Source of the DNA: an uncultured Actinomycetota bacterium
GTDB taxonomy: Bacteria > Actinomycetota > Humimicrobiia > Humimicrobiales > Humimicrobiaceae
Length of the DNA stretch: 64,000 bases
NCBI GenBank assembly: GCA_964610315.1
Contig: CAZSVM010000013.1
Coordinates: forward strand, 7,014-71,013
Direction of reading: 5' to 3'
Positions 63-59,486 of this stretch are shown here, in pieces. The position numbers were made by a program, and so were the translations under genes. How positions within the stretch are numbered: the stretch's first letter is position 1; each line of letters opens with the position of its first letter. Below the pieces are notes generated by a model. It worked only from the letters and a program-made list of their open reading frames with translations. It did no database searches and was not told the origin of the DNA.

Positions 63-1211
63 ATAAATAGAACAATCATTATTTTTCTGATATGTTTGTT
101 CTTAGTTTCTACAGTAAGTTGCAGAAAAGAAGTTGTAGAAGAACCGGTTATCGAGAAACCAGAAGAAAAGCTTACCGTTGAAGAGCCAGTAGAAGAAGAG
201 TCAGTTGAAGAGGATCAGGCTATTGTTGAGGAACCTGTTAAAGAAGAGGTTGTGGCAGAGGAGCCAGTTGAGGAAGCCGAACCATTACTAAATGGGATTA
301 TTGTTGAAAATCTGAGTATTGCTCTTACAAAAATAAAAAGAAAACAGGACTACTGGGATTCAAAAATAGATCACATATGTTTAGATTTTACTCTTCGTAA
401 AATAAAAACATCGGGGGAATCCAATCTTAAATTTTCTTTTGAAATTATTGATGATCATGGAAATATTTATGATGAAAATAATATGAGCCTCTTTTATGGC
501 CCCGACTCTGGCGAAACTAAAATTGGCCCAAACCTTGGACGGTATGACGACACTTATTGTCAGGATGCTAATATAGACATCGATAAAGCCCCTATTGGAT
601 TCACATGGACTGTCCCTCTCCGTTCTTTTGAAATACCTAGTAGTGCTCCTTTAACAAAACTTAAAATATATTACCAAAAAGGATACCGAGACGAAAAAAA
701 AGAATTAACCACCATAGATCTTTCCAACTTTAAACCTTCACCGGTTGAAGATTTTTATTCTCAATTAAAAGATGAAAACCTTCTTTTCCTACCATATACT
801 TTTAAAAAAGAATATTTGTCAATGACTATACAAAAAATGCAAATTAAAGAAGGAAAAGAAATACAAGAAGGAGTATCTCAACCAATGGATGAACGAGAAG
901 CCTTCATAATCCCGATTACTTTTATAAACGATGATTATAATTCTATTAATTTTAGTTTAGAAGGCATTGGAATCCAAAATCCAAATGGTGCAATCCTATG
1001 GGGATATTATACTGGATACGAAGGCGGCACACTGCCAGGAGATGGGGGTTTCACAGCTTCAATTCCAGAATTAAGCCAAAAGACAACTGAATTTCATATA
1101 ATAAGATTTTCAGATGAAGGGACGCCAAAAGCAATTCTATTTTATTCATTACCTGGGAAAGCCTCTGACAATATTACCATTTTGAAGATTTCTCCTGAAA
1201 ATTTTGAATAA
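63..1211 (+). CDS. hypothetical secreted protein or lipoprotein with N-terminal acidic Glu/Pro/Val-rich repeats
   Basis: ORF track 96..1211 (TTG start). The in-frame extension back to ATA at 63-65, preceded 9 nt by GAGGTGG, yields a textbook signal peptide MNRTIIIFLICLFLVSTVSC. About six EEPV-like repeats lie at nt ~130-290. No catalytic motif recognised. Confidence 0.45.
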   Translation: MNRTIIIFLICLFLVSTVSCRKEVVEEPVIEKPEEKLTVEEPVEEESVEEDQAIVEEPVKEEVVAEEPVEEAEPLLNGIIVENLSIALTKIKRKQDYWDSKIDHICLDFTLRKIKTSGESNLKFSFEIIDDHGNIYDENNMSLFYGPDSGETKIGPNLGRYDDTYCQDANIDIDKAPIGFTWTVPLRSFEIPSSAPLTKLKIYYQKGYRDEKKELTTIDLSNFKPSPVEDFYSQLKDENLLFLPYTFKKEYLSMTIQKMQIKEGKEIQEGVSQPMDEREAFIIPITFINDDYNSINFSLEGIGIQNPNGAILWGYYTGYEGGTLPGDGGFTASIPELSQKTTEFHIIRFSDEGTPKAILFYSLPGKASDNITILKISPENFE

Positions 1212-1734: not shown

Positions 1735-2703
1735 TTATAATTTTCCATTTTTTAATGTATTCAAATCGAATTTTTCAACTGATAAAATATTTAAAATGGG
1801 TCTTATATCACCCTCCCAGTCAAAGAGTAGGTTGTTAAATCCAATATACAAAGGTTCACACTCGATTTTAAATGGAATACTTTTAATTTTTCCCTTATTT
1901 CTTCTCTTCCCCTCCACATATAAAGATTTTGGAAGATTATCTGCACTACCAATTGCTACTTTACTCAAAACTTTATCCCACACTTCATTATGAATTAATT
2001 TCCTCCAATAATTAGGCAATAGCCTTCCTAATTCAGGAGATAATTTAGAAACTTTTTGGTAATCTCTATAATTAATCTGCTTGTTTAAAGAATTACCTTT
2101 TTCGCCTTTATACCTCCAAAATGTAACCATTGTATCCTTCAGGAGTGATAGGTCTTCTGTTACTCTCTTAATTATCAACATACGTGAAACTTGGAACTTT
2201 TTTGAAAGTTCTTCAATCATATCTATTGAATTAGAACCTACTCTGTTAATTTCTAAAAAACTTTCTTTTATTAAATTGTCTGGAAGCAATAGGTATCTTG
2301 CCATGTCGTGACACCAATCCTCAGGTGAAACCATCTTAAGCTTAGGAACTAAAGATGTGCAATCATAAAATAATATATGAGCTAATTCATGGCAAATTGT
2401 TGATCGTATTCTTACATCAGAGAATTTTTTATCCTCAGTGTCTAATGTACCATATTTGATTATAAAACCTCCTTGGATCGGTACTAAAAAACCCTCATCA
2501 AAAGTTGAGATTTTTTTATCTGGTTCTATGATAATTTTTATTCCCCTCAGATCTTCAATAACTTTGCATAGTGTTTTTTCGCAGACTGGAGGGGTAATAA
2601 ATCTAGTTTTCTTTTCATACTCCCGAAGAATATCCTTTACCCATTTCTGGATAAAATCCTTCTTCCTAATGAAATTGTTAGAAGTGCTCAAATAGATATT
2701 CAT
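1735..2703 (-). CDS. IrrE/ImmA-family (COG2856, peptidase M78-like) zinc metallopeptidase with ~200-aa C-terminal sensor-like extension
   Basis: HEXXH motif ICHELAHILFYD at residues ~105-109 of 322 aa. The protein is longer than a minimal ImmA domain. Its ATG overlaps the upstream gene's stop codon (ATGA at 2700-2703). Confidence 0.7.
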   Translation of the reverse strand: MNIYLSTSNNFIRKKDFIQKWVKDILREYEKKTRFITPPVCEKTLCKVIEDLRGIKIIIEPDKKISTFDEGFLVPIQGGFIIKYGTLDTEDKKFSDVRIRSTICHELAHILFYDCTSLVPKLKMVSPEDWCHDMARYLLLPDNLIKESFLEINRVGSNSIDMIEELSKKFQVSRMLIIKRVTEDLSLLKDTMVTFWRYKGEKGNSLNKQINYRDYQKVSKLSPELGRLLPNYWRKLIHNEVWDKVLSKVAIGSADNLPKSLYVEGKRRNKGKIKSIPFKIECEPLYIGFNNLLFDWEGDIRPILNILSVEKFDLNTLKNGKL

Positions 2704-4583
2704 ATTGGTAATTCTTCCTGTTTATACCTGGCTTCTACTTTATTTTTTGCAGCTCTTACTATTTCTTCTACCCTATTATTCACAAGATCAAGCTTAAAAT
2801 GCTTTCCACTCCTTTCTCTTACTAAAACCTCCTCAATTGTAGATGGAATTTCCTGATATACTTCAGGTATTTGAGGTTTTGGAGTGGAGTTCTCTAATTC
2901 CTCGTATATCCTCCCGCTGACTTCATATTCATAGCTTTGATAGACATAATGATCAAAGATTGAATCACCTACTCCAATATCCTTTTTTAACTCTTCTTTA
3001 ATCACCTTACCATAAATAGGTATTAAAAGAGGATCAATAAATACATACAATTTCCACAAAGCCTTATATTGTTCCATAACATTTCTAACTCTATCAGCTA
3101 GGCTCTTATGACGTTCCTCTAAGCTTTTCAAACATGTTTCACTATTGAGTTTCTCAATAACTTCATTAGGATTACCGTTATTATCTATTTTTTCGTATGA
3201 AACTAGAGCTTCTGCTTCCTTTAATGCCATTTTACTAGTGGGGCAAAATATAAGTATAGAACCCACTGGTAAACCGAATTTCTTTTCTATTTTTTCTTCT
3301 AATTCAGATCGGTTTTGAGGAAATGAGTACTTTACTGATAAATCAATCTCATCTGGTTTTCTTTGTTTATAAGCAGGTATTATATGGAATCGTTTGTAAA
3401 ATCTTCTGCTTTTTAAAGAAACTAAGAGTCTTTTAGCACCACTAGCTCTACTTTCATATTTTGGATTTTTGCTCATCTTTTCTATCTTTTTCTCAAGTAA
3501 GCTTATAAAACCTTCATCTCCAATATTATATAACTCATCAGATTCTGTTAAATTACATAAGGATGCAATTTTACCCAACATTGCACTTGCTTCACATTTT
3601 GCATGGTGATAGATAACTGCCTCAGTAAGAGCATATCTTACGTTTAAAATACCAATAATTGCAGAAAGAACATCATGACGCCAGTCTCCTCTTTTAGTGA
3701 GTTTAATCACCATTCGAGTCTTCCCATAGGTATCTTTATTTTGCCTTAGTTCAATATAATCAAACAGCCGATACAAAAAACCAGGTTTCATTTCTATTCC
3801 AGTAAATTCCACATCTCTTAAGATATAGCTAAGAAGGTCAGCGGATATTGTATTTCCTATTATGTCTGAAATATAAAATCTATCGGGGTTTAAGAGATTT
3901 TTTTCAATTTTTTCCTGTATTTCAGCTCTTTCTTTCTCAGATAATTTTTTTCCTTTCTCATTCTCAGTTTTTTTATCTTTTCTCTCAATAAACTGTTTTA
4001 TTGAACCCTCGTCTGGAAAGGCAATTGTCCATAAAACTTTTCTTGCATCTTCTAAAAGTCCTTGGTCATTTTTAATTATTTTCTCAAACTCATCTTTTTC
4101 CTTAAATCCAAATAGAGTGTAGGGAGCTAATTCTGGGGATTTCTTTAACACTTCAAGCTCGTTATTTATTAAATTTATCATTTTATCAATTCTTTCACTC
4201 TTGTCTCCTTTTTCAAGGATACCATTTTCATCCTCTAATGTATGAGAATATGGAATATGCATTATATCATGTAACAGAGCCGCTACTCTTATAAGTGGGG
4301 TATCATCTTTTATCCGCTTTAAGAACTCCCCCTTCTCGTCTTTATTTATAGAGATTGAAAGTTCAATATTTTCCTTTAGAGCGTCTATAAAGCGTTGAGA
4401 CATGTCTAAACAATCCAAACAATGAGCTGCTCTTGTATGAGTAGCAAAAGGGTATACTCGGTCAGCTATTCCAAGTTGTTTTATGCTGTATAATCGTTGA
4501 AAACATTTGGTATTAATAAATAAAAGTTCATATCCTTCAATTTTAACATCCCTATTTGGAATCCTAAAATTCTTTCTTTTCAT
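2700..4583 (-). CDS. SAMHD1/dGTPase-like HD-domain dNTP triphosphohydrolase with ~250-aa C-terminal extension
   Basis: Motifs FQRLYSIKQLG, ATHTRAAHCL, LLHDIMHIPYSH and DLLSYILRDVEFTG match the dGTPase/SAMHD1 HD signature. Probable start MKRKNF at 4583, with GGAGGG 7 nt upstream (ORF track begins at 4619). Confidence 0.75.
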   Translation of the reverse strand: MKRKNFRIPNRDVKIEGYELLFINTKCFQRLYSIKQLGIADRVYPFATHTRAAHCLDCLDMSQRFIDALKENIELSISINKDEKGEFLKRIKDDTPLIRVAALLHDIMHIPYSHTLEDENGILEKGDKSERIDKMINLINNELEVLKKSPELAPYTLFGFKEKDEFEKIIKNDQGLLEDARKVLWTIAFPDEGSIKQFIERKDKKTENEKGKKLSEKERAEIQEKIEKNLLNPDRFYISDIIGNTISADLLSYILRDVEFTGIEMKPGFLYRLFDYIELRQNKDTYGKTRMVIKLTKRGDWRHDVLSAIIGILNVRYALTEAVIYHHAKCEASAMLGKIASLCNLTESDELYNIGDEGFISLLEKKIEKMSKNPKYESRASGAKRLLVSLKSRRFYKRFHIIPAYKQRKPDEIDLSVKYSFPQNRSELEEKIEKKFGLPVGSILIFCPTSKMALKEAEALVSYEKIDNNGNPNEVIEKLNSETCLKSLEERHKSLADRVRNVMEQYKALWKLYVFIDPLLIPIYGKVIKEELKKDIGVGDSIFDHYVYQSYEYEVSGRIYEELENSTPKPQIPEVYQEIPSTIEEVLVRERSGKHFKLDLVNNRVEEIVRAAKNKVEARYKQEELPI

Positions 4584-4883
4584 ATAGCTTCCCTCCATTT
4601 TCAGGAATAAAGTTGTCAATCAAAATGCCTTTTTTAACTTGTTTCTTTACGAAATATTTTATTTTTGCCTTAATAATATATATTATTTAAATTATAAATA
4701 TAATACACACAATATTCAATTATTTACTTTTTTTCAGTTCTAGACAAAAAGTATAGTCCTAATTTCCTCTGGTTTATTTTCATAAAACTCTATGCTAAAC
4801 TTCTAAAAGTAGGTAGTTTATGACGAATTTTTTAATAAGCTTCCTAAAACAGCTTACAAAACTTTCTCTTACGGAGACTGATA

Positions 4884-6371
4884 ATGGAAAACGAAAAAGC
4901 AGTTGGTATCTGGATCCGGGTCTCTACTGAAGACCAGGCCAAAGGTGAAAGCCCAGAGCATCATGAAAAAAGAGCCCGTCTTTATGCCGAGTCCAAGGGC
5001 TGGAAGGTAAAGGAAGTATATCACCTTGAGGCAGTAAGCGGAAAATCAGTAATGGGTCTTCCAGAAACAAAAAGGATGCTCGCGGATATAGAAAGTGGCT
5101 ACATTACTGCTCTAATCTTCTCCAAACTTGCAAGACTTGCCCGAAATACCAAAGAGCTTCTAGAATTTTCTGAAATCTTCAGGGAATACAATGCAGATTT
5201 AATCTCCCTCCAGGAATCCATCGATACTTCAACCCCAGCTGGAAGGCTTTTTTACACCATAATTGCTGCAATGGCCCAGTGGGAAAGAGAAGAAATCTCA
5301 GATAGAGTGGCTGCCTCTGTTCCAATTAGAGCTATGCTTGGAAAATCCATTGGTGGCAAGGCTTCCTTTGGTTACCACTGGAAAGACAACAAATTAGTTC
5401 CCGATCCAAAAGAGGTACCAGTCAGGAAGTTAATCTATGAGCTTTTTTTGGAGCACAAGCGTAAAAAAACAGTAGCCAGAGTTTTAAATGAAGCCGGGTA
5501 TAGAACCAGAAAGGGATCAAAGTTCTGTGATACAACCATCGGAAGGCTTCTCAGAGATCCTACTGCCAAGGGAGTTCACCGAGCTAATTACACTAAAACT
5601 CTTGGAGAGAATAAAAAATGGGTCCTAAAACCAAAAGAGGAATGGGTCTTTACCAAGGTAGAGCCCATTGTCTCTGAAGAGCTCTGGGACGAGTGTAATC
5701 AGATTTTAGATGAGCAAAAAAAGAAAAACAAAATCCCGACTAGAAAACCTGTCCATATTTTTACCGGAATTGCCTACTGCCACTGTGGAAATAAGATGTA
5801 CGTACCTTCCAATTCCCCTAAATATACCTGCTATAAATGCAGAAACAAAATAGGAAAAGATGATTTAGAAGAGGTCTTCCACCAACAGCTTAAAACCTTC
5901 TTTTTCTCATCTTCAGAGATCAGTGACTACTTAAATAAAGCAGATAATGTTATAAAAGAAAAAGAAGAGCTACTGGCTAGCTTAATAGATGAGGAGAAAA
6001 AAAATAATCAGGAAATGGATAAAATCTACAATCTATATTTTGATGATAAGATAACAAGTGATGAATTTGGAGTTCGCCACAAACCTTTTGAAGAAAGGTT
6101 TTTACAATTAAAAGATAAAATTCCTAAACTTCAAGGTGAAATTGATTTTTTAAAAATCCAGTATCTATCCAGTGATAGAATACTAAATGAAGCTAAAGAT
6201 CTCTATTCCAGATGGCCAGAACTAGAGACAGAAGAAAAAAGAAAGATTGTTGAAAATGTTGCTGAAAAAATAATAGTTGGAACTGAAGATGTGACTATAA
6301 ATCTATGTTACCTCCCGTCATCCCCTCCCAAAATAGCGACATCTTCGCAACGCAATCTCAGGGGTTGGTAG
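4884..6371 (+). CDS. large serine recombinase (integrase)
   Basis: N-terminal resolvase catalytic domain (GIWIRVSTEDQ, catalytic Ser), followed by a recombinase domain and a Cys-rich zinc ribbon (CHCGNKMY...CYKCRNK). GGAGA ribosome-binding site before ATG. Confidence 0.85.
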   Translation: MENEKAVGIWIRVSTEDQAKGESPEHHEKRARLYAESKGWKVKEVYHLEAVSGKSVMGLPETKRMLADIESGYITALIFSKLARLARNTKELLEFSEIFREYNADLISLQESIDTSTPAGRLFYTIIAAMAQWEREEISDRVAASVPIRAMLGKSIGGKASFGYHWKDNKLVPDPKEVPVRKLIYELFLEHKRKKTVARVLNEAGYRTRKGSKFCDTTIGRLLRDPTAKGVHRANYTKTLGENKKWVLKPKEEWVFTKVEPIVSEELWDECNQILDEQKKKNKIPTRKPVHIFTGIAYCHCGNKMYVPSNSPKYTCYKCRNKIGKDDLEEVFHQQLKTFFFSSSEISDYLNKADNVIKEKEELLASLIDEEKKNNQEMDKIYNLYFDDKITSDEFGVRHKPFEERFLQLKDKIPKLQGEIDFLKIQYLSSDRILNEAKDLYSRWPELETEEKRKIVENVAEKIIVGTEDVTINLCYLPSSPPKIATSSQRNLRGW

Positions 6372-7410
6372 CCACTATCAACATAAAATTACAGGGAAAA
6401 CTGTAAGAAAAATTATTTCTGGTAATAATTACCTCCTTATTTTCCAGGGGCTGCCTTAAATCCTCTATAAAATTTCTGGGGAATTGTGAAAATTCATCCA
6501 GGAACAATAAACCTTTATGCGTCAGACTGATTTCACCTGGTCTGGGACTGATACCTCCTCCAATAAGTCCTATCCTGCTTATAGTATGATGAGGGCTTCT
6601 AAAGGGCCTTTTTTGTATCAGGTTGCTGACATTCTTTTCACGTAAACTATAAATTTTGGTAACCTCTATACATTCCTGCATATTTAAATCAGGCATTATG
6701 GTAACCGCTCTTCTGGCAAGCATTGTCTTACCGCTGCCGGGAGGGCCTATAAGCATTACATTGTGCCTTCCTCCTACAGCTATCTCCAGAGCTCTTTTTG
6801 CCTTAAGCTGACCTTTTACATCCTTAAAGTCAAAGTTATAAGAGGTATGCTTTCTGGCAATATTATTATTGACCTTATATATAAACTTCTCCGTTCCCTC
6901 TTTACCGGAAAGAGCTTCTACTGCTTCTAATAGATTCCTGCAGGCAACTATTCTTACACCGGAAATAAAAGAAACCTGGTTGGCTATCCCATAGGGCACG
7001 AAAAAAAAGCTTTTTGAACCCTTCTGTGCTTCTTCTGCCATAGAAATTAAACCTCTCACCGGATTTATGCTTCCGTCCAGTGACAGTTCACCTACAAAAC
7101 AGGATTCCTTTGAAATACTACAATTAATTTGGCCGCTGGCGGAAAGAATGGAAAGAGCTATGGGTAAATCATAAAAAGAGCCGTCTTTTTTTATATCTGC
7201 CGGCGACAGATTTACAATTATTTTTTTTACCGGAAAATCAAAACCGCTGTTAATGACTGCAGATCTTACTCTCTGTCTGGATTCATTTACTGCCTTTCCC
7301 GGAAGGCCCACGATTATAAATTCAGGCAGACCTCTTGTTATATGAACCTCTACCGATACTCTTACCGCATCGACACCGGTTAATGTGAAGCTGTCTAACT
7401 TAAATAGCAT
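6358..7410 (-). pseudogene. comM: comM/yifB (Mg-chelatase-like AAA+ competence protein) 5' fragment, truncated after ...IVATNP by element insertion
   Basis: N-terminal ComM domain and AAA+ Walker A (GPPGSGKTMLA) are present. The protein stops right after the NP that precedes the CPCG motif in full-length ComM/YifB (~500 aa; here 350 aa). Confidence 0.8.
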
Positions 7411-9709: not shown

Positions 9710-12106
9710 TTAATCAAATTTAAATCCCTGCCGGATAACAATTTTGACGCAGGTATCCACTACTCCAGGGTCATATAATTTACCCTTGTTTTCTTTTATT
9801 TCATCAATTGCTTTTTTTAAGCCAAGAGCAGGACGGTAGGGTCTGTATGAGGACATGGCTTCCACTATATCGGCCACTGTCAATATTTTAGCTTCCAGCA
9901 TTATATCTTTTCCTTTCAAACCCCTGGGATATCCCGAACCATCCAGTTTCTCGTGGTGCTGGAGTATAATTTCGGCAACAGGCGTCGGAAATTCTATTTC
10001 TTTAACCATCTCATATCCCACCTGGGGATGAGTTTTAATCAAATTATATTCTATATCGGTCAATCTTCCCGGCTTGGTTAAAATTGAAGCAGGTATATTT
10101 ATCTTTCCTATATCATGAATTTTTGCCGCCGTTTCTATACATTCAATCATTTCCTGGCTAAGATTAAGTTCTTTTGAAATAGCCACTGCCAGTTTGGTAA
10201 CTCTTTTTTGGTGGCCGGAAGTATAAGGATCCCTGGTTTCCACTATTGCCGCCAGCGCATTTATGGTACCCTGCAGGGTTTTCTGTAGTTTATTATAACT
10301 TTCTTTTAAATCATTCTCCATCAATTTACGGTCAGTTACGTCAAACCAGGTTATTATCCGGTATGTCAATTTTTTATTACTGAATACCAATTTGGAATTA
10401 ACTTCAACCCAGAATTCCTCTCCCATTTTATCAATAAAAAGATACTCGAGGTTGCTGCGACTCTCGTTTAAGCCGTTATCGAACTCCTTCTTATATCTCC
10501 TCCTCAACTTCTCAGGCCACCAGGGATAAGGCGGTTTCTTACCCAGAATCTCATTCGATTTCAATCCTACCCGGCTTTCCAATGCCGAGTTTACATATTT
10601 TATGGAGGAATCCGCATCGATTACCAGAATAGGATTGGGAGAATTTTCCATCAGGCTGGAACTAAACTTTTCACTATCCCTCAAAGATTCTTCTGCCTGT
10701 TTTTGCCTGGTCAGATCATCATAAACGGCTACTATCTCTCCTGAAGGCAGTTTATAAATATAATTACGCCTCCAGCCTGAAATTCTACTATCTTTATAAA
10801 AAGCAATGGGATATTTCTCAGGTTTACCTGTCTGGTATACTCTTTTAAAAACATCAAAAATGCCGAAATTTTTTACTCCCGGAAAAATCTTTAAAACACT
10901 TTTTCCGATAATGGCTTCTCTTTTAACTTTTTCTATTCTTTCTGCCGCCTTATTAAAATCTCTTATTATAAAGTCACTCCCATTATCTACGGCTTCATAT
11001 ACGGCTACACCACTGCTCATATTATCAAAAAGCTCTTTAAATCTATTTTCGTTTGTTTTTACTTCCTCGAAAGCTTTTTTTTGTAAGGTGATATCTTTAA
11101 AACATTCAATGATTCCAATTATTTCTCCCTTTTTGTTCCTGATAGGACTTGAATTCAAAATACAGAGAATTTTTTTACCGTATATATTTTCTCTTGGCAC
11201 TTCAGCATCAATAATTTTTTCACCACCGATAGTCCTTCTAAGTATGCAGTTTTTGGTATGACAATCAGATCCATAAAATACCTCAAAACACTTCCTGCCC
11301 ACAATTTTATCTCTGCTCAGACCAAATAAATCAGTAAATGCTTTATTTATTTTCATAATAATATAATCTATGCTTATAATTCTCATCGCATCCACCGAAA
11401 CATTAAAGACCTGATCCAGTTCTTCATATGCATCTTTTAGGGTATCTTCTATTTTCTTTCTTTTTATGGCTGCAACCAATTGTTCCGAAATAATATTGAT
11501 TCTTTCCAAATCGAAGGCAGTGAAAGGTTTCCGCCCAGATATATCCATTAATCCTATAACATCACCGTTTGAAATGAGAGGGACAACCATAATTGATTTT
11601 ATATTCAGAATTTTATAAATTTGCGGTATAAATTTTATAATGGTGTTTTTTAATAATTTTTTCTCTTTAGGTAAAACCCCCACAAATTCCATAATTAATT
11701 TTTCTATTTCGACAGCATCATTTATAATGACCGGCTTTTTTTCTTTAAGTATTTTAAAATAGCAACTTAATTCCTTTATTGGAATTTTTACTTCCGGTAC
11801 TTTGATTTTTATTAATTGCTCGATTTTCTTTCTCTGAGCTGCGGACAGATTAAGTCCCTGCATTATAAGGTATTTTCCATCATCGCTGAGTAAATACACT
11901 GCTATACCCGAACCTGAAAACAATTTTTTGGTTTTTACGGATATAAGCTTGATTATTTTTTCCAGACTCTCACCGCGATTTACGGCAACGTTTACGGAAT
12001 TTACCAGTTCCAGATCTTCCAGTTTCTGCAGCATTTCATCCGTATTCAATATTTTTCCACTTTTTCTTTTCTGGGAATCTTTTACCGGTTTCATTTCCTT
12101 TCTCAT
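9710..12106 (-). CDS. multi-sensor (GAF + PAS) HD-GYP domain c-di-GMP phosphodiesterase
   Basis: C-terminal HDIGKI...HHEKLDGSGYP (HD-GYP). GAF-like and two PAS-like regions lie upstream in the 798-aa protein. Confidence 0.8.
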   Translation of the reverse strand: MRKEMKPVKDSQKRKSGKILNTDEMLQKLEDLELVNSVNVAVNRGESLEKIIKLISVKTKKLFSGSGIAVYLLSDDGKYLIMQGLNLSAAQRKKIEQLIKIKVPEVKIPIKELSCYFKILKEKKPVIINDAVEIEKLIMEFVGVLPKEKKLLKNTIIKFIPQIYKILNIKSIMVVPLISNGDVIGLMDISGRKPFTAFDLERINIISEQLVAAIKRKKIEDTLKDAYEELDQVFNVSVDAMRIISIDYIIMKINKAFTDLFGLSRDKIVGRKCFEVFYGSDCHTKNCILRRTIGGEKIIDAEVPRENIYGKKILCILNSSPIRNKKGEIIGIIECFKDITLQKKAFEEVKTNENRFKELFDNMSSGVAVYEAVDNGSDFIIRDFNKAAERIEKVKREAIIGKSVLKIFPGVKNFGIFDVFKRVYQTGKPEKYPIAFYKDSRISGWRRNYIYKLPSGEIVAVYDDLTRQKQAEESLRDSEKFSSSLMENSPNPILVIDADSSIKYVNSALESRVGLKSNEILGKKPPYPWWPEKLRRRYKKEFDNGLNESRSNLEYLFIDKMGEEFWVEVNSKLVFSNKKLTYRIITWFDVTDRKLMENDLKESYNKLQKTLQGTINALAAIVETRDPYTSGHQKRVTKLAVAISKELNLSQEMIECIETAAKIHDIGKINIPASILTKPGRLTDIEYNLIKTHPQVGYEMVKEIEFPTPVAEIILQHHEKLDGSGYPRGLKGKDIMLEAKILTVADIVEAMSSYRPYRPALGLKKAIDEIKENKGKLYDPGVVDTCVKIVIRQGFKFD

Positions 12107-59279: not shown

Positions 59280-59293
59280 AATTTTTCTCCAAA

Positions 59294-59405
59294 TAAAAAA
59301 ACCTCCTTACCATAAAGGTAAGAAGGTCAAAATATTTTCTTTATTAGAATATTTTATTAATATTTTATTCATTCCTTTTTAGCCTCTCCGGACTATTTTA
59401 AAGGT
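59294..59405 (-). promoter_or_regulatory. PyrR-dependent transcription attenuator (PyrR binding loop + terminator hairpin with U-tract just upstream of pyrR)
   Basis: On the minus-strand RNA, AGUCCGGAGAGGCUAAAAAGG (plus 59380-59400) matches the PyrR binding-loop consensus. The CCUUCUUACC-UUUAU-GGUAAGGAGG stem plus UUUUUUU (plus 59294-59326) sits ~15 nt before the pyrR ATG. Confidence 0.7.
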
Positions 59406-59486
59406 AATAATATTTTAATTTTGTACTCTGTTCATCAGATACTATAGGGGATTGCAGACAAAAAAACAAGCATAAATTTAAAAAAC

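Follow-up and report, generated by a model that had tools for sequence, protein, structure and literature searches.

We analysed a stretch of 64,000 nucleotides from an uncultured Actinomycetota bacterium (GenBank assembly GCA_964610315.1, contig CAZSVM010000013.1, positions 7,014 to 71,013; hereafter the window), in which two adjacent genes on the minus strand make up a self-contained two-gene cassette of 2.85 kb. The upstream gene (2700..4583, minus strand) encodes a protein of 627 amino acids (aa) when read from its ATG, a long-form HD phosphohydrolase of the SAMHD1/EF1143 type that is predicted to be a deoxynucleoside triphosphate (dNTP) triphosphohydrolase and the effector of the cassette; a TTG at 4619, upstream of the ATG, is an alternative start codon that would give 639 aa. 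The downstream gene (1735..2703, minus strand) encodes a 322-aa zinc metallopeptidase of the CapP/IrrE type (family M78) that has no helix-turn-helix (HTH) domain and is predicted to be the regulator or sensor. An initial annotation, made from the sequence alone, had proposed that the two genes form one translationally coupled operon, and this was confirmed: the TGA stop codon of the HD gene and the ATG of the peptidase gene share the four bases ATGA (2700..2703, minus strand), an overlap read directly from the sequence that couples both genes. Also read from the sequence is a ribosome-binding site of the Shine-Dalgarno type, GGAGGG (4591..4596, minus strand), 7 nt 5' of the HD start codon. 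A weak candidate for the operon promoter is a sigma-70-like site at 4691..4719 on the minus strand (TTGAAT-17-TATAAT, 10/12 in a consensus scan); sigma-70-like sites in the AT-rich region around it barely exceed the number expected from shuffled sequence. The motifs quoted in the initial annotation were all found, namely FQRLYSIKQLG (aa 28-38), LLHDIMHIPYSH (aa 103-114) and ADLLSYILRD (aa 248-257) in the HD protein, and ICHELAHILF (aa 103-112) in the peptidase.

The strongest result of the analysis is that the pair is a unit. Relatives of the HD protein are rare and patchy: a scan of one genome per species, 185,579 genomes in all, found 265 of them. Their bacterial hosts include Thermodesulfobacteriota, Nitrospirota, Acidobacteriota, Planctomycetota, Actinomycetota, Chloroflexota, Saccharibacteria and Alphaproteobacteria, and their archaeal hosts are Hadarchaeota, Bathyarchaeia and Hydrothermarchaeales. 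Enough downstream sequence was available at 70 related loci, 49 with a long-form and 21 with a short-form HD gene. A homologous peptidase, identified with hidden Markov models (HMMs), was encoded directly downstream of 32 of the 49 long-form genes and of 1 of the 21 short-form genes (Fisher p = 1.5e-6), and the pairing is therefore not due to chance. At five more long-form loci an open reading frame (ORF) with an HEXXH motif occupied the downstream position, and at two more the peptidase gene was divergent and lay upstream of the HD gene. An HEXXH ORF also follows the HD gene in a cultured organism, Tistlia consotensis USBA 355 (Alphaproteobacteria, locus L051).

The arrangement of the two genes was conserved as well. 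Every complete close relative of the window cassette had the peptidase gene immediately downstream of the HD gene, and close homologues of the two proteins occurred one-to-one on common contigs. At loci where the HD protein is 68%, 56%, 36% and 33% identical to that of the window, the peptidase gene overlapped the HD stop codon and the HEXXH motif was intact; most related loci had overlaps or gaps of a few bases equivalent to the ATGA of the window. The pair was retained down to about 20-30% identity across many phyla and in archaea. The identities of both proteins to the window copies co-vary (Spearman 0.76, 16 pairs), and the peptidase diverges faster than the HD protein.

A search with the peptidase profile returned 104 matches, nearly all of them on contigs that also carry HD homologues. 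The contexts of four peptidase relatives with no listed HD match were looked up. Three of these (L093, L094 and L096) have a SAMHD1-like HD gene immediately upstream, in one case encoding an 895-aa version of the protein next to a peptidase at E = 1e-9. L095 (983-5135) was the sole exception among the peptidase contexts that were looked up: no HD gene was detectable upstream, where an rve-type transposase gene of an insertion sequence (IS) and two uncharacterised ORFs are located, and an IS insertion may have removed the HD gene. The peptidase clade is a small one: out of 1.84 billion representatives searched, 68 clusters reached E<=1e-30, and 982 reached E<=1e-10. Taken together, these data show that this peptidase clade is dedicated to the long-form HD clade, and the conservation evidence for the pair is solid. 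The initial annotation had named co-occurrence across genomes as a check on its proposal, and the result strengthens the case for a dedicated functional pair. A conserved third gene was considered and rejected: genes of about 250 aa follow the peptidase gene in L006 and L008, which are only distant variants, and they are mutually unrelated. The product of the one in L006 (10490-11242) has only a faint FlmR_OhkR_N match, and that of the one in L008 (10532-11281) has a trypsin-like G.SGS motif by eye.

We next consider the HD protein. Taken singly, the window protein scored weakly against library models. It matched the PADLOC dGTPase model with 18 bits over 93 residues only, and a full-length match to the Dgt family was not obtained (TIGR01353, 16 bits, with the cut-off at 152). 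In a database search we found 148 HD homologues of 540-655 aa, nearly all metagenomic and with one to a few sequences each. A profile made from 52 homologues matched SAMHD1, EF1143 and the uncharacterised structures 2q14 and 2hek at E values of 1e-17 to 1e-20, and matched E. coli-type Dgt enzymes marginally only. Foldseek agreed with the profile on the SAMHD1/EF1143-type assignment: about 400 of the 627 residues superpose on solved structures of the SAMHD1 type, including the C-terminal lobe, at an identity of about 15-22%, and the protein is nearer to the SAMHD1 type than to other HD branches. Structures of SAMHD1 with single-stranded RNA and single-stranded DNA (ssDNA) are among its matches in the PDB.

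The predicted active site of the HD protein is intact. The metal quartet H54, H105, D106 and D249 follows the H...HD...D pattern of the HD superfamily; H105, D106 and D249 are invariant in the 52 homologues, and each of the 50 sequences without a gap at position 54 has H54. The nucleotide-contacting motifs FQRL, the R of HxR, D..Y..RD and R...Y(Q/H)HK are also present, and residues Q29, R30, R51, Y253, D257, R316, H326, H327 and K329 are invariant or nearly so in the family. The family has a signature of its own as well, the invariant SHTLEDE. By the presumed correspondence of family positions to SAMHD1 residue numbers, the invariant Leu250 stands at the position of Lys312 in SAMHD1. By sequence profile and structure model, the HD enzyme thus belongs to the SAMHD1/EF1143 branch of the dNTP triphosphohydrolases, and not to the Dgt branch of the established antiphage 'dGTPases'; the view of the initial annotation that the protein is SAMHD1-like was borne out by the profile, by Foldseek and by residue conservation. 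As judged from its sequence, the enzyme most likely hydrolyses dNTPs to deoxynucleosides and triphosphate.

Two segments distinguish the long-form HD proteins from short relatives of 420-475 aa without a peptidase, which were taken from the same genome scan. In these short forms HMM positions of about 130-185 are absent and the protein ends near position 480 of 579. The first segment in the window protein is an insert (3879..4193, minus strand; codons ~131-235), which is rich in Lys and Glu, helical in the structure model, weakly conserved in sequence, and specific to the peptidase-linked long forms. The second is an acidic, helical C-terminal tail (2703..3011, minus strand; codons ~525-627), again specific to the long forms, in which no column is invariant or nearly so past aa 532 and the confidence of the structure model (pLDDT) is reduced over aa 581-600. 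These two segments are the features of the HD protein that track with the presence of the peptidase, and the tail is a candidate for a regulatory or cleavable segment. The initial annotation had described a C-terminal extension of about 250 aa. Because comparison with the short relatives places the true extras in the insert and the tail, that description is wrong in detail: most of the proposed extension is ordinary SAMHD1 C-lobe, and what stands is that the protein carries additional segments.

The peptidase has the features of a catalytically competent M78/COG2856 enzyme. The HEXXH motif (2377..2391, minus strand) comprises H105, E106 and H109, and E128, the likely third zinc ligand, lies downstream in an E..(A/C)..(F/I)A..LL.P motif. 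In CapP, the zinc ligands are H96, H100 and E129, and the catalytic residue is E97 (10.1101/2022.04.27.489752). Since H105, E106, H109 and E128 are invariant in 45 peptidase homologues, down to 16% identity, the peptidase is kept catalytically competent and its proteolytic activity is under selection. L139 is invariant too, and A135, R136 and P141 are nearly so. In searches of defence libraries the best match was PADLOC capP (E 4.9e-8), followed by nine RmrA models (E 1e-7 to 1e-3); the NCBIfam family of spr1629 repressors/antitoxins was matched at E 1e-5. These library matches are weak and cover the catalytic part only.

The architecture of the protein, a peptidase domain, a helical linker and a GAF-like C-terminal domain, is that of the CapP/IrrE subtype. 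The C-terminal domain (1738..2136, minus strand; codons ~190-322) has an alpha/beta fold similar to GAF/PAS domains and is a candidate signal-sensing domain. Cys115, which is invariant in the close clade, is located on a hairpin directly after the HEXXH helix; this hairpin recalls the cysteine-switch loop of CapP and is a candidate counterpart of it. No HTH domain was found in the peptidase, and no ORF with an HTH flanks the pair in the window, in agreement with the earlier view of an IrrE/ImmA-family peptidase without an HTH partner. Other members of the clade carry further domains. In one of 722 aa (P0243), a peptidase that scores 216 bits against the clade profile is joined to a TIR domain (TIR_2, E 1.3e-19), and two more (P0239 and P0244) have C-terminal helix-hairpin-helix (HhH) DNA-binding motifs. 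The TIR fusion and the HhH members fit an immune, DNA-sensing role of the peptidase clade. P0243 also has an uncharacterised C-terminal region.

The cassette lies on a mobile element. Upstream of the HD gene and divergent from it is the gene for a large serine recombinase of 495 aa (4884..6371, plus strand), the integrase of the cassette-bearing element, which contains Resolvase, Recombinase and Zn_ribbon_recom domains and is similar to CcrB and XisF. Its 3' end abuts a 5' fragment of comM/yifB (6358..7410, minus strand), which matches positions 5-347 of the 499 of TIGR00368 and then ends, giving an integration site at about 6358-6371. Because the recombinase gene abuts a comM frame that is cut at position 347 of 499, the cassette is cargo at the edge of a comM-inserted element, as the initial annotation had held. 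An overlapping public contig from this organism (L009) reaches 6.66 kb past the left end of the window and carries more genes of the element, including one for a TraG/TrwB-type coupling protein, and the whole resembles an integrative mobilisable or conjugative element. Neither the window nor L009 contains the 3' part of comM; the element therefore runs for more than 13 kb, and its left end was not reached.

Related loci also place the pair in mobile and defence contexts. In L005 it lies on an element with an integrase, a relaxase and a coupling protein, and in L008 among transposases and an integrase. In L001-L004, L011 and L099 it adjoins a three-gene Lamassu-like set (CTD7, MC3 and LmuB_C) and an IS110 transposase, an arrangement that recurs in many samples; in L001 (1205-4841) and L099 (4469-8105) this set is directly upstream of a pair whose identity to that of the window is 68%, and IS110 is downstream. 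In L006 the neighbours are a DNA methylase, Vsr, DUF4928, DUF6119, a Ymh-type protein and a Replic_Relax gene. The pair is a bare two-gene insert between gatB and aspS in L098, and lies beside amino-acid biosynthesis genes in L093 and L097. We also scanned the two nearest neighbours on each side at 33 distant loci, 122 proteins in total. Among the matches listed were five integrases, one TrwC relaxase and about half a dozen defence-type proteins (type III methyltransferases, AbiEi, PD-Lambda-2_B and two PDC candidates), and HTH_3 was present in only 2 of the 122. These data show that the cassette is rare, patchy and horizontally moving.

A phage-borne cassette was considered and rejected, since phage genomes and IMG/VR all but lack it. 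Collections of phages and plasmids gave only N-terminal-domain matches to other HD proteins and no peptidase, and IMG/VR contained 2 relatives in 2.9 million contigs. Two HD proteins seen in these searches are recorded here as separate observations. The Klebsiella phage ST11-VIM1phi8.3 (L091, 2415-3947) encodes a 510-aa SAMHD1-like HD protein without a peptidase, near an integrase gene at the start of the prophage record; the same protein, which scores 98 bits against the family profile, occurs on the Klebsiella plasmids H8-H10 and may be a separate, stand-alone dNTPase cargo gene. A giant-virus metagenome-assembled genome (L101, IMG/VR GVMAG-S-3300013131-119) encodes a SAMHD1-like HD protein (96 bits) with no adjacent peptidase.

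We compared the cassette with known systems. Relative to SAMHD1/EF1143-type enzymes (human SAMHD1, EF1143 of Enterococcus faecalis, 2hek of Aquifex and 2q14 of Bacteroides), the HD protein of the window is about 200 residues larger owing to the helical insert and tail, has no SAM domain, and is obligately paired with a protease gene. Adjacent proteases that cut a regulatory segment of an effector upon infection have been demonstrated for bacterial gasdermins and for CalpL-type CRISPR-associated proteases; the proposed logic of the cassette is the same, but those proteases and effectors belong to unrelated families, and in the cassette cleavage is hypothesised. The Dgt-type antiphage dGTPases, represented by the PADLOC/DefenseFinder 'dGTPase' and by the octameric Vdg (PMC13519002), share the logic of nucleotide depletion, whereas the HD protein of the window is from another branch. 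From Clover it is clear that a dNTPase with a defence role may require a second, dedicated gene to regulate it (PMC12265719). The cassette is not a Clover system: CloA belongs to a different, Dgt-like dNTPase branch, and its partner CloB is a nucleotidyltransferase.

In CapP-CapH (CBASS), IrrE/PprI-DdrO (Deinococcus) and ImmA-ImmR (ICEBs1 and phages), the protease cleaves an adjacent HTH repressor and acts via transcription. The cassette has no linked HTH gene in the examined loci and no CBASS genes, and its constant partner is an enzyme; because an HTH substrate is missing, it is none of these three systems. RosmerTA (RmrT/RmrA) and spr1629-type systems likewise consist of two genes, for an effector and an M78-type peptidase. 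RmrA and spr1629 have an N-terminal HTH region, which the window peptidase lacks, and the RmrA alignments run from about model position 184-214 (to about 300) and from about residue 90 of the peptidase. With neither an HTH region in the peptidase nor an RmrT match for the HD protein, the cassette is not RosmerTA. PADLOC 2.0, NCBIfam, Pfam and PHROGs hold no model for the pair, and no description of it was found in full-text literature, where subscription journals are thinly covered and absence is not proof. A 2026 survey of dGTPase architectures lists domain fusions only, with no peptidase partner (PMC13519002), and no peptidase partner is mentioned for the defence dNTPase of Clover (PMC12265719). 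As far as these libraries and the searched literature go, the earlier claim of an undescribed architecture holds.

The cassette is most likely a nucleotide-depletion defence module. It would work like the known nucleotide-depletion defences, with a known kind of protease switch, and is a member of no named system. In defence, dNTPases are established as effectors whose activity requires dedicated control (PMC12265719, PMC13519002). Proteases of the CapP/IrrE/ImmA kind are latent until a DNA-damage-type signal arises, whereupon they cut their partner once, in its C-terminal oligomerisation helices. The activator of CapP is ssDNA, and its cut falls in the first helix of the C-terminal dimerisation domain of CapH (10.1101/2022.04.27.489752). 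We favour a protease-gated dNTPase because the peptidase lacks an HTH repressor as its partner and is constantly paired with an enzyme that has lineage-specific helical appendages. In the sequence of events that we infer, the dNTPase would be made in a restrained form. Infection, or the replication of foreign DNA, would create a signal that the peptidase senses, and the peptidase would then cleave a lineage-specific segment of the HD protein, either the insert or the tail and most likely the tail. Cleavage would free the dNTPase activity, the dNTP pool would collapse, and replication of the invader would stop. For this reading as a whole, a mobile two-gene cassette in which a peptidase-gated dNTPase defends the cell by nucleotide depletion, our confidence is tentative and stops somewhat short of an even chance.

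Several observations weigh against this reading. The direction in which the peptidase would regulate the HD protein, activation rather than inactivation, is a guess, and no conserved cleavage site is visible, because the insert and the tail are poorly conserved. Next to about 10-12 of the 49 long-form HD genes, no peptidase could be detected. Both proteins of the window fall below the Pfam cut-off of 22 bits, the HD protein with 21.6 bits against HD and the peptidase with 18.6 bits against M78 (PF06114); peptidase relatives (P0143, P0145 and P0146) have precomputed PF06114 matches. Position 126 of the HD protein, which is His in 28 of the 52 homologues, is Gly in the window. The association with defence genes and mobile elements in the distant relatives is real but modest: the 122 neighbours also include gyrase, ribonucleotide reductase and DnaE among the matches listed, and several loci (L093, L097 and L098) lie amid housekeeping genes.

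The main rival explanation is a toxin-antitoxin module in the style of RosmerTA, in which the dNTPase would be a constitutive toxin and the co-translated peptidase an antitoxin that neutralises it by binding or degradation. The dNTPase would be freed when a phage shuts off host expression or brings an inhibitor of the peptidase. The library matches speak for this, as the nine RmrA models come next after capP and the NCBIfam match is to a repressor/antitoxin family. Translational coupling and one-to-one inheritance are typical of such pairs, lone insertion between housekeeping genes is how such modules occur, and conjugative elements, on which the cassette is found, commonly carry addiction modules. 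However, the matches to RmrA and spr1629 span the peptidase part only, an N-terminal HTH region of about 190 residues is absent, and no RmrT model matches the HD protein. Moreover, a catalytic antitoxin must stay active in every uninfected cell, for which the protease family offers no precedent, and CapP and IrrE, which of the characterised proteases are nearest to the peptidase in structure, are activated by a signal and are not constitutive. We regard the toxin-antitoxin arrangement as unlikely, and give the same low weight to release by phage shut-off or by a phage inhibitor.

The DNA-damage responsiveness shared by IrrE, ImmA and CapP also fits a switch that has no part in defence. The dNTPase would hold dNTPs low, and upon damage, or when ssDNA appears, the IrrE-like protease would destroy it, so that dNTPs rise for repair or for replication or transfer of the element. 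Some distant loci neighbour ribonucleotide reductase, DnaE or gyrase, several others are in housekeeping neighbourhoods, and the short SAMHD1/EF1143-type enzymes are ordinary chromosomal genes. A physiological regulator, however, is expected to be common and vertically inherited, whereas the pair is scarce (265 relatives among 185,579 species genomes, and 68 clusters of the peptidase at E<=1e-30), patchy across phyla, and located on mobile elements or beside Lamassu-like and restriction-modification genes. In addition, one protein of the peptidase clade carries the immune effector domain TIR as a fusion. A damage switch of this kind therefore seems improbable.

The substrate of the HD enzyme may be questioned separately. 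Under the same protease control, the enzyme might act on NTPs, a signalling nucleotide or a nucleic acid in place of dNTPs. Its activity is predicted from an identity of about 15-22% to solved enzymes, and the invariant SHTLEDE, the Leu at position 250, where we presume SAMHD1 to have Lys312, and the variable position 126 set the family apart; SAMHD1 itself binds nucleic acids, as the entries with single-stranded RNA and ssDNA among the structure matches illustrate. The conserved metal quartet and nucleotide-contacting residues described above stand on the side of a dNTPase, and a different substrate appears to us very unlikely. Finally, that the two genes are unrelated cargo, with the peptidase acting as an ImmA-like induction switch on a repressor elsewhere on the element and the HD protein as an independent dNTPase, is hardly credible: regulation by an ImmA-type peptidase is standard for integrative conjugative elements, the element in question encodes both a recombinase and a coupling protein, and a distant repressor might lie beyond its left end outside the window, but the conservation data already contradict the idea and largely refute it, as the pair recurs without the surrounding element (L098 between gatB and aspS; L093) and in unrelated elements and phyla, where gene order and overlap are unchanged, and the peptidase clade is nearly always beside HD genes with no HTH gene consistently near.

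Other features of the window were recorded in addition to the cassette. To its left, an ORF of 371 aa (96-1211, plus strand) has an acidic, repeat-rich N-terminal third of the EEPV/EEPVEE type and no Pfam or PHROG match. It is flanked by an exact inverted repeat of 25 bp, with one copy at 1503-1527 of the window and the other at 14758-14782 of L009, about 160-180 bp left of the window start. Between this ORF and the peptidase gene is an AT-rich spacer of 520 bp (1212-1734), 3' of the peptidase gene, with sigma-70-like promoters that score 11/12 on both strands (1460-1489 on the plus strand and 1577-1548 on the minus strand) and two terminator-like hairpins on the plus strand (1676-1692 and 1705-1729). 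As read from these elements, the spacer could give a transcript of about 200 nt that is convergent with the peptidase gene. We rejected it as an RNA component of the system, given that it had no Rfam match, a fold z of -1.4 and no conservation in other loci. In the chromosomal flank, a minus-strand gene at 9710-12106 encodes a 798-aa signalling protein with GAF-PAS-PAS-HD(HD_5) domains, which is unrelated to the HD enzyme of the cassette. Between 9.7 and 64 kb, nearly every large ORF is encoded by the minus strand. A PyrR-binding leader (59293-59408, minus strand; Rfam RF00515, 61.3 bits) lies upstream of a long run of minus-strand ORFs at about 49-59 kb, which is probably a pyrimidine-biosynthesis operon with a carB-sized gene of about 1069 aa.

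The protease-gated dNTPase bears on a key problem in immunity by SAMHD1-like and bacterial dNTPases, which is how an enzyme that destroys dNTPs is kept harmless until it is needed. The answers described so far are allosteric nucleotides and, in Clover, a signalling nucleotidyltransferase. In its broadest form, our proposal is that a CapP/IrrE-type protease has been re-targeted from a repressor to an enzyme, providing a zymogen-like, post-translational switch that turns on a SAMHD1-type dNTPase in response to foreign or damaged DNA, that this switch has spread horizontally in bacteria and archaea, and that the same protease clade has also been wired to TIR effectors. We offer this broad claim as a possibility that is more doubtful than probable. 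If it is true, a dedicated, signal-activated protease would be a third solution to the problem, the substrate range of ImmA/IrrE/CapP proteases would be widened past HTH repressors, and prokaryotes would have long-form relatives of SAMHD1 with built-in regulatory segments.

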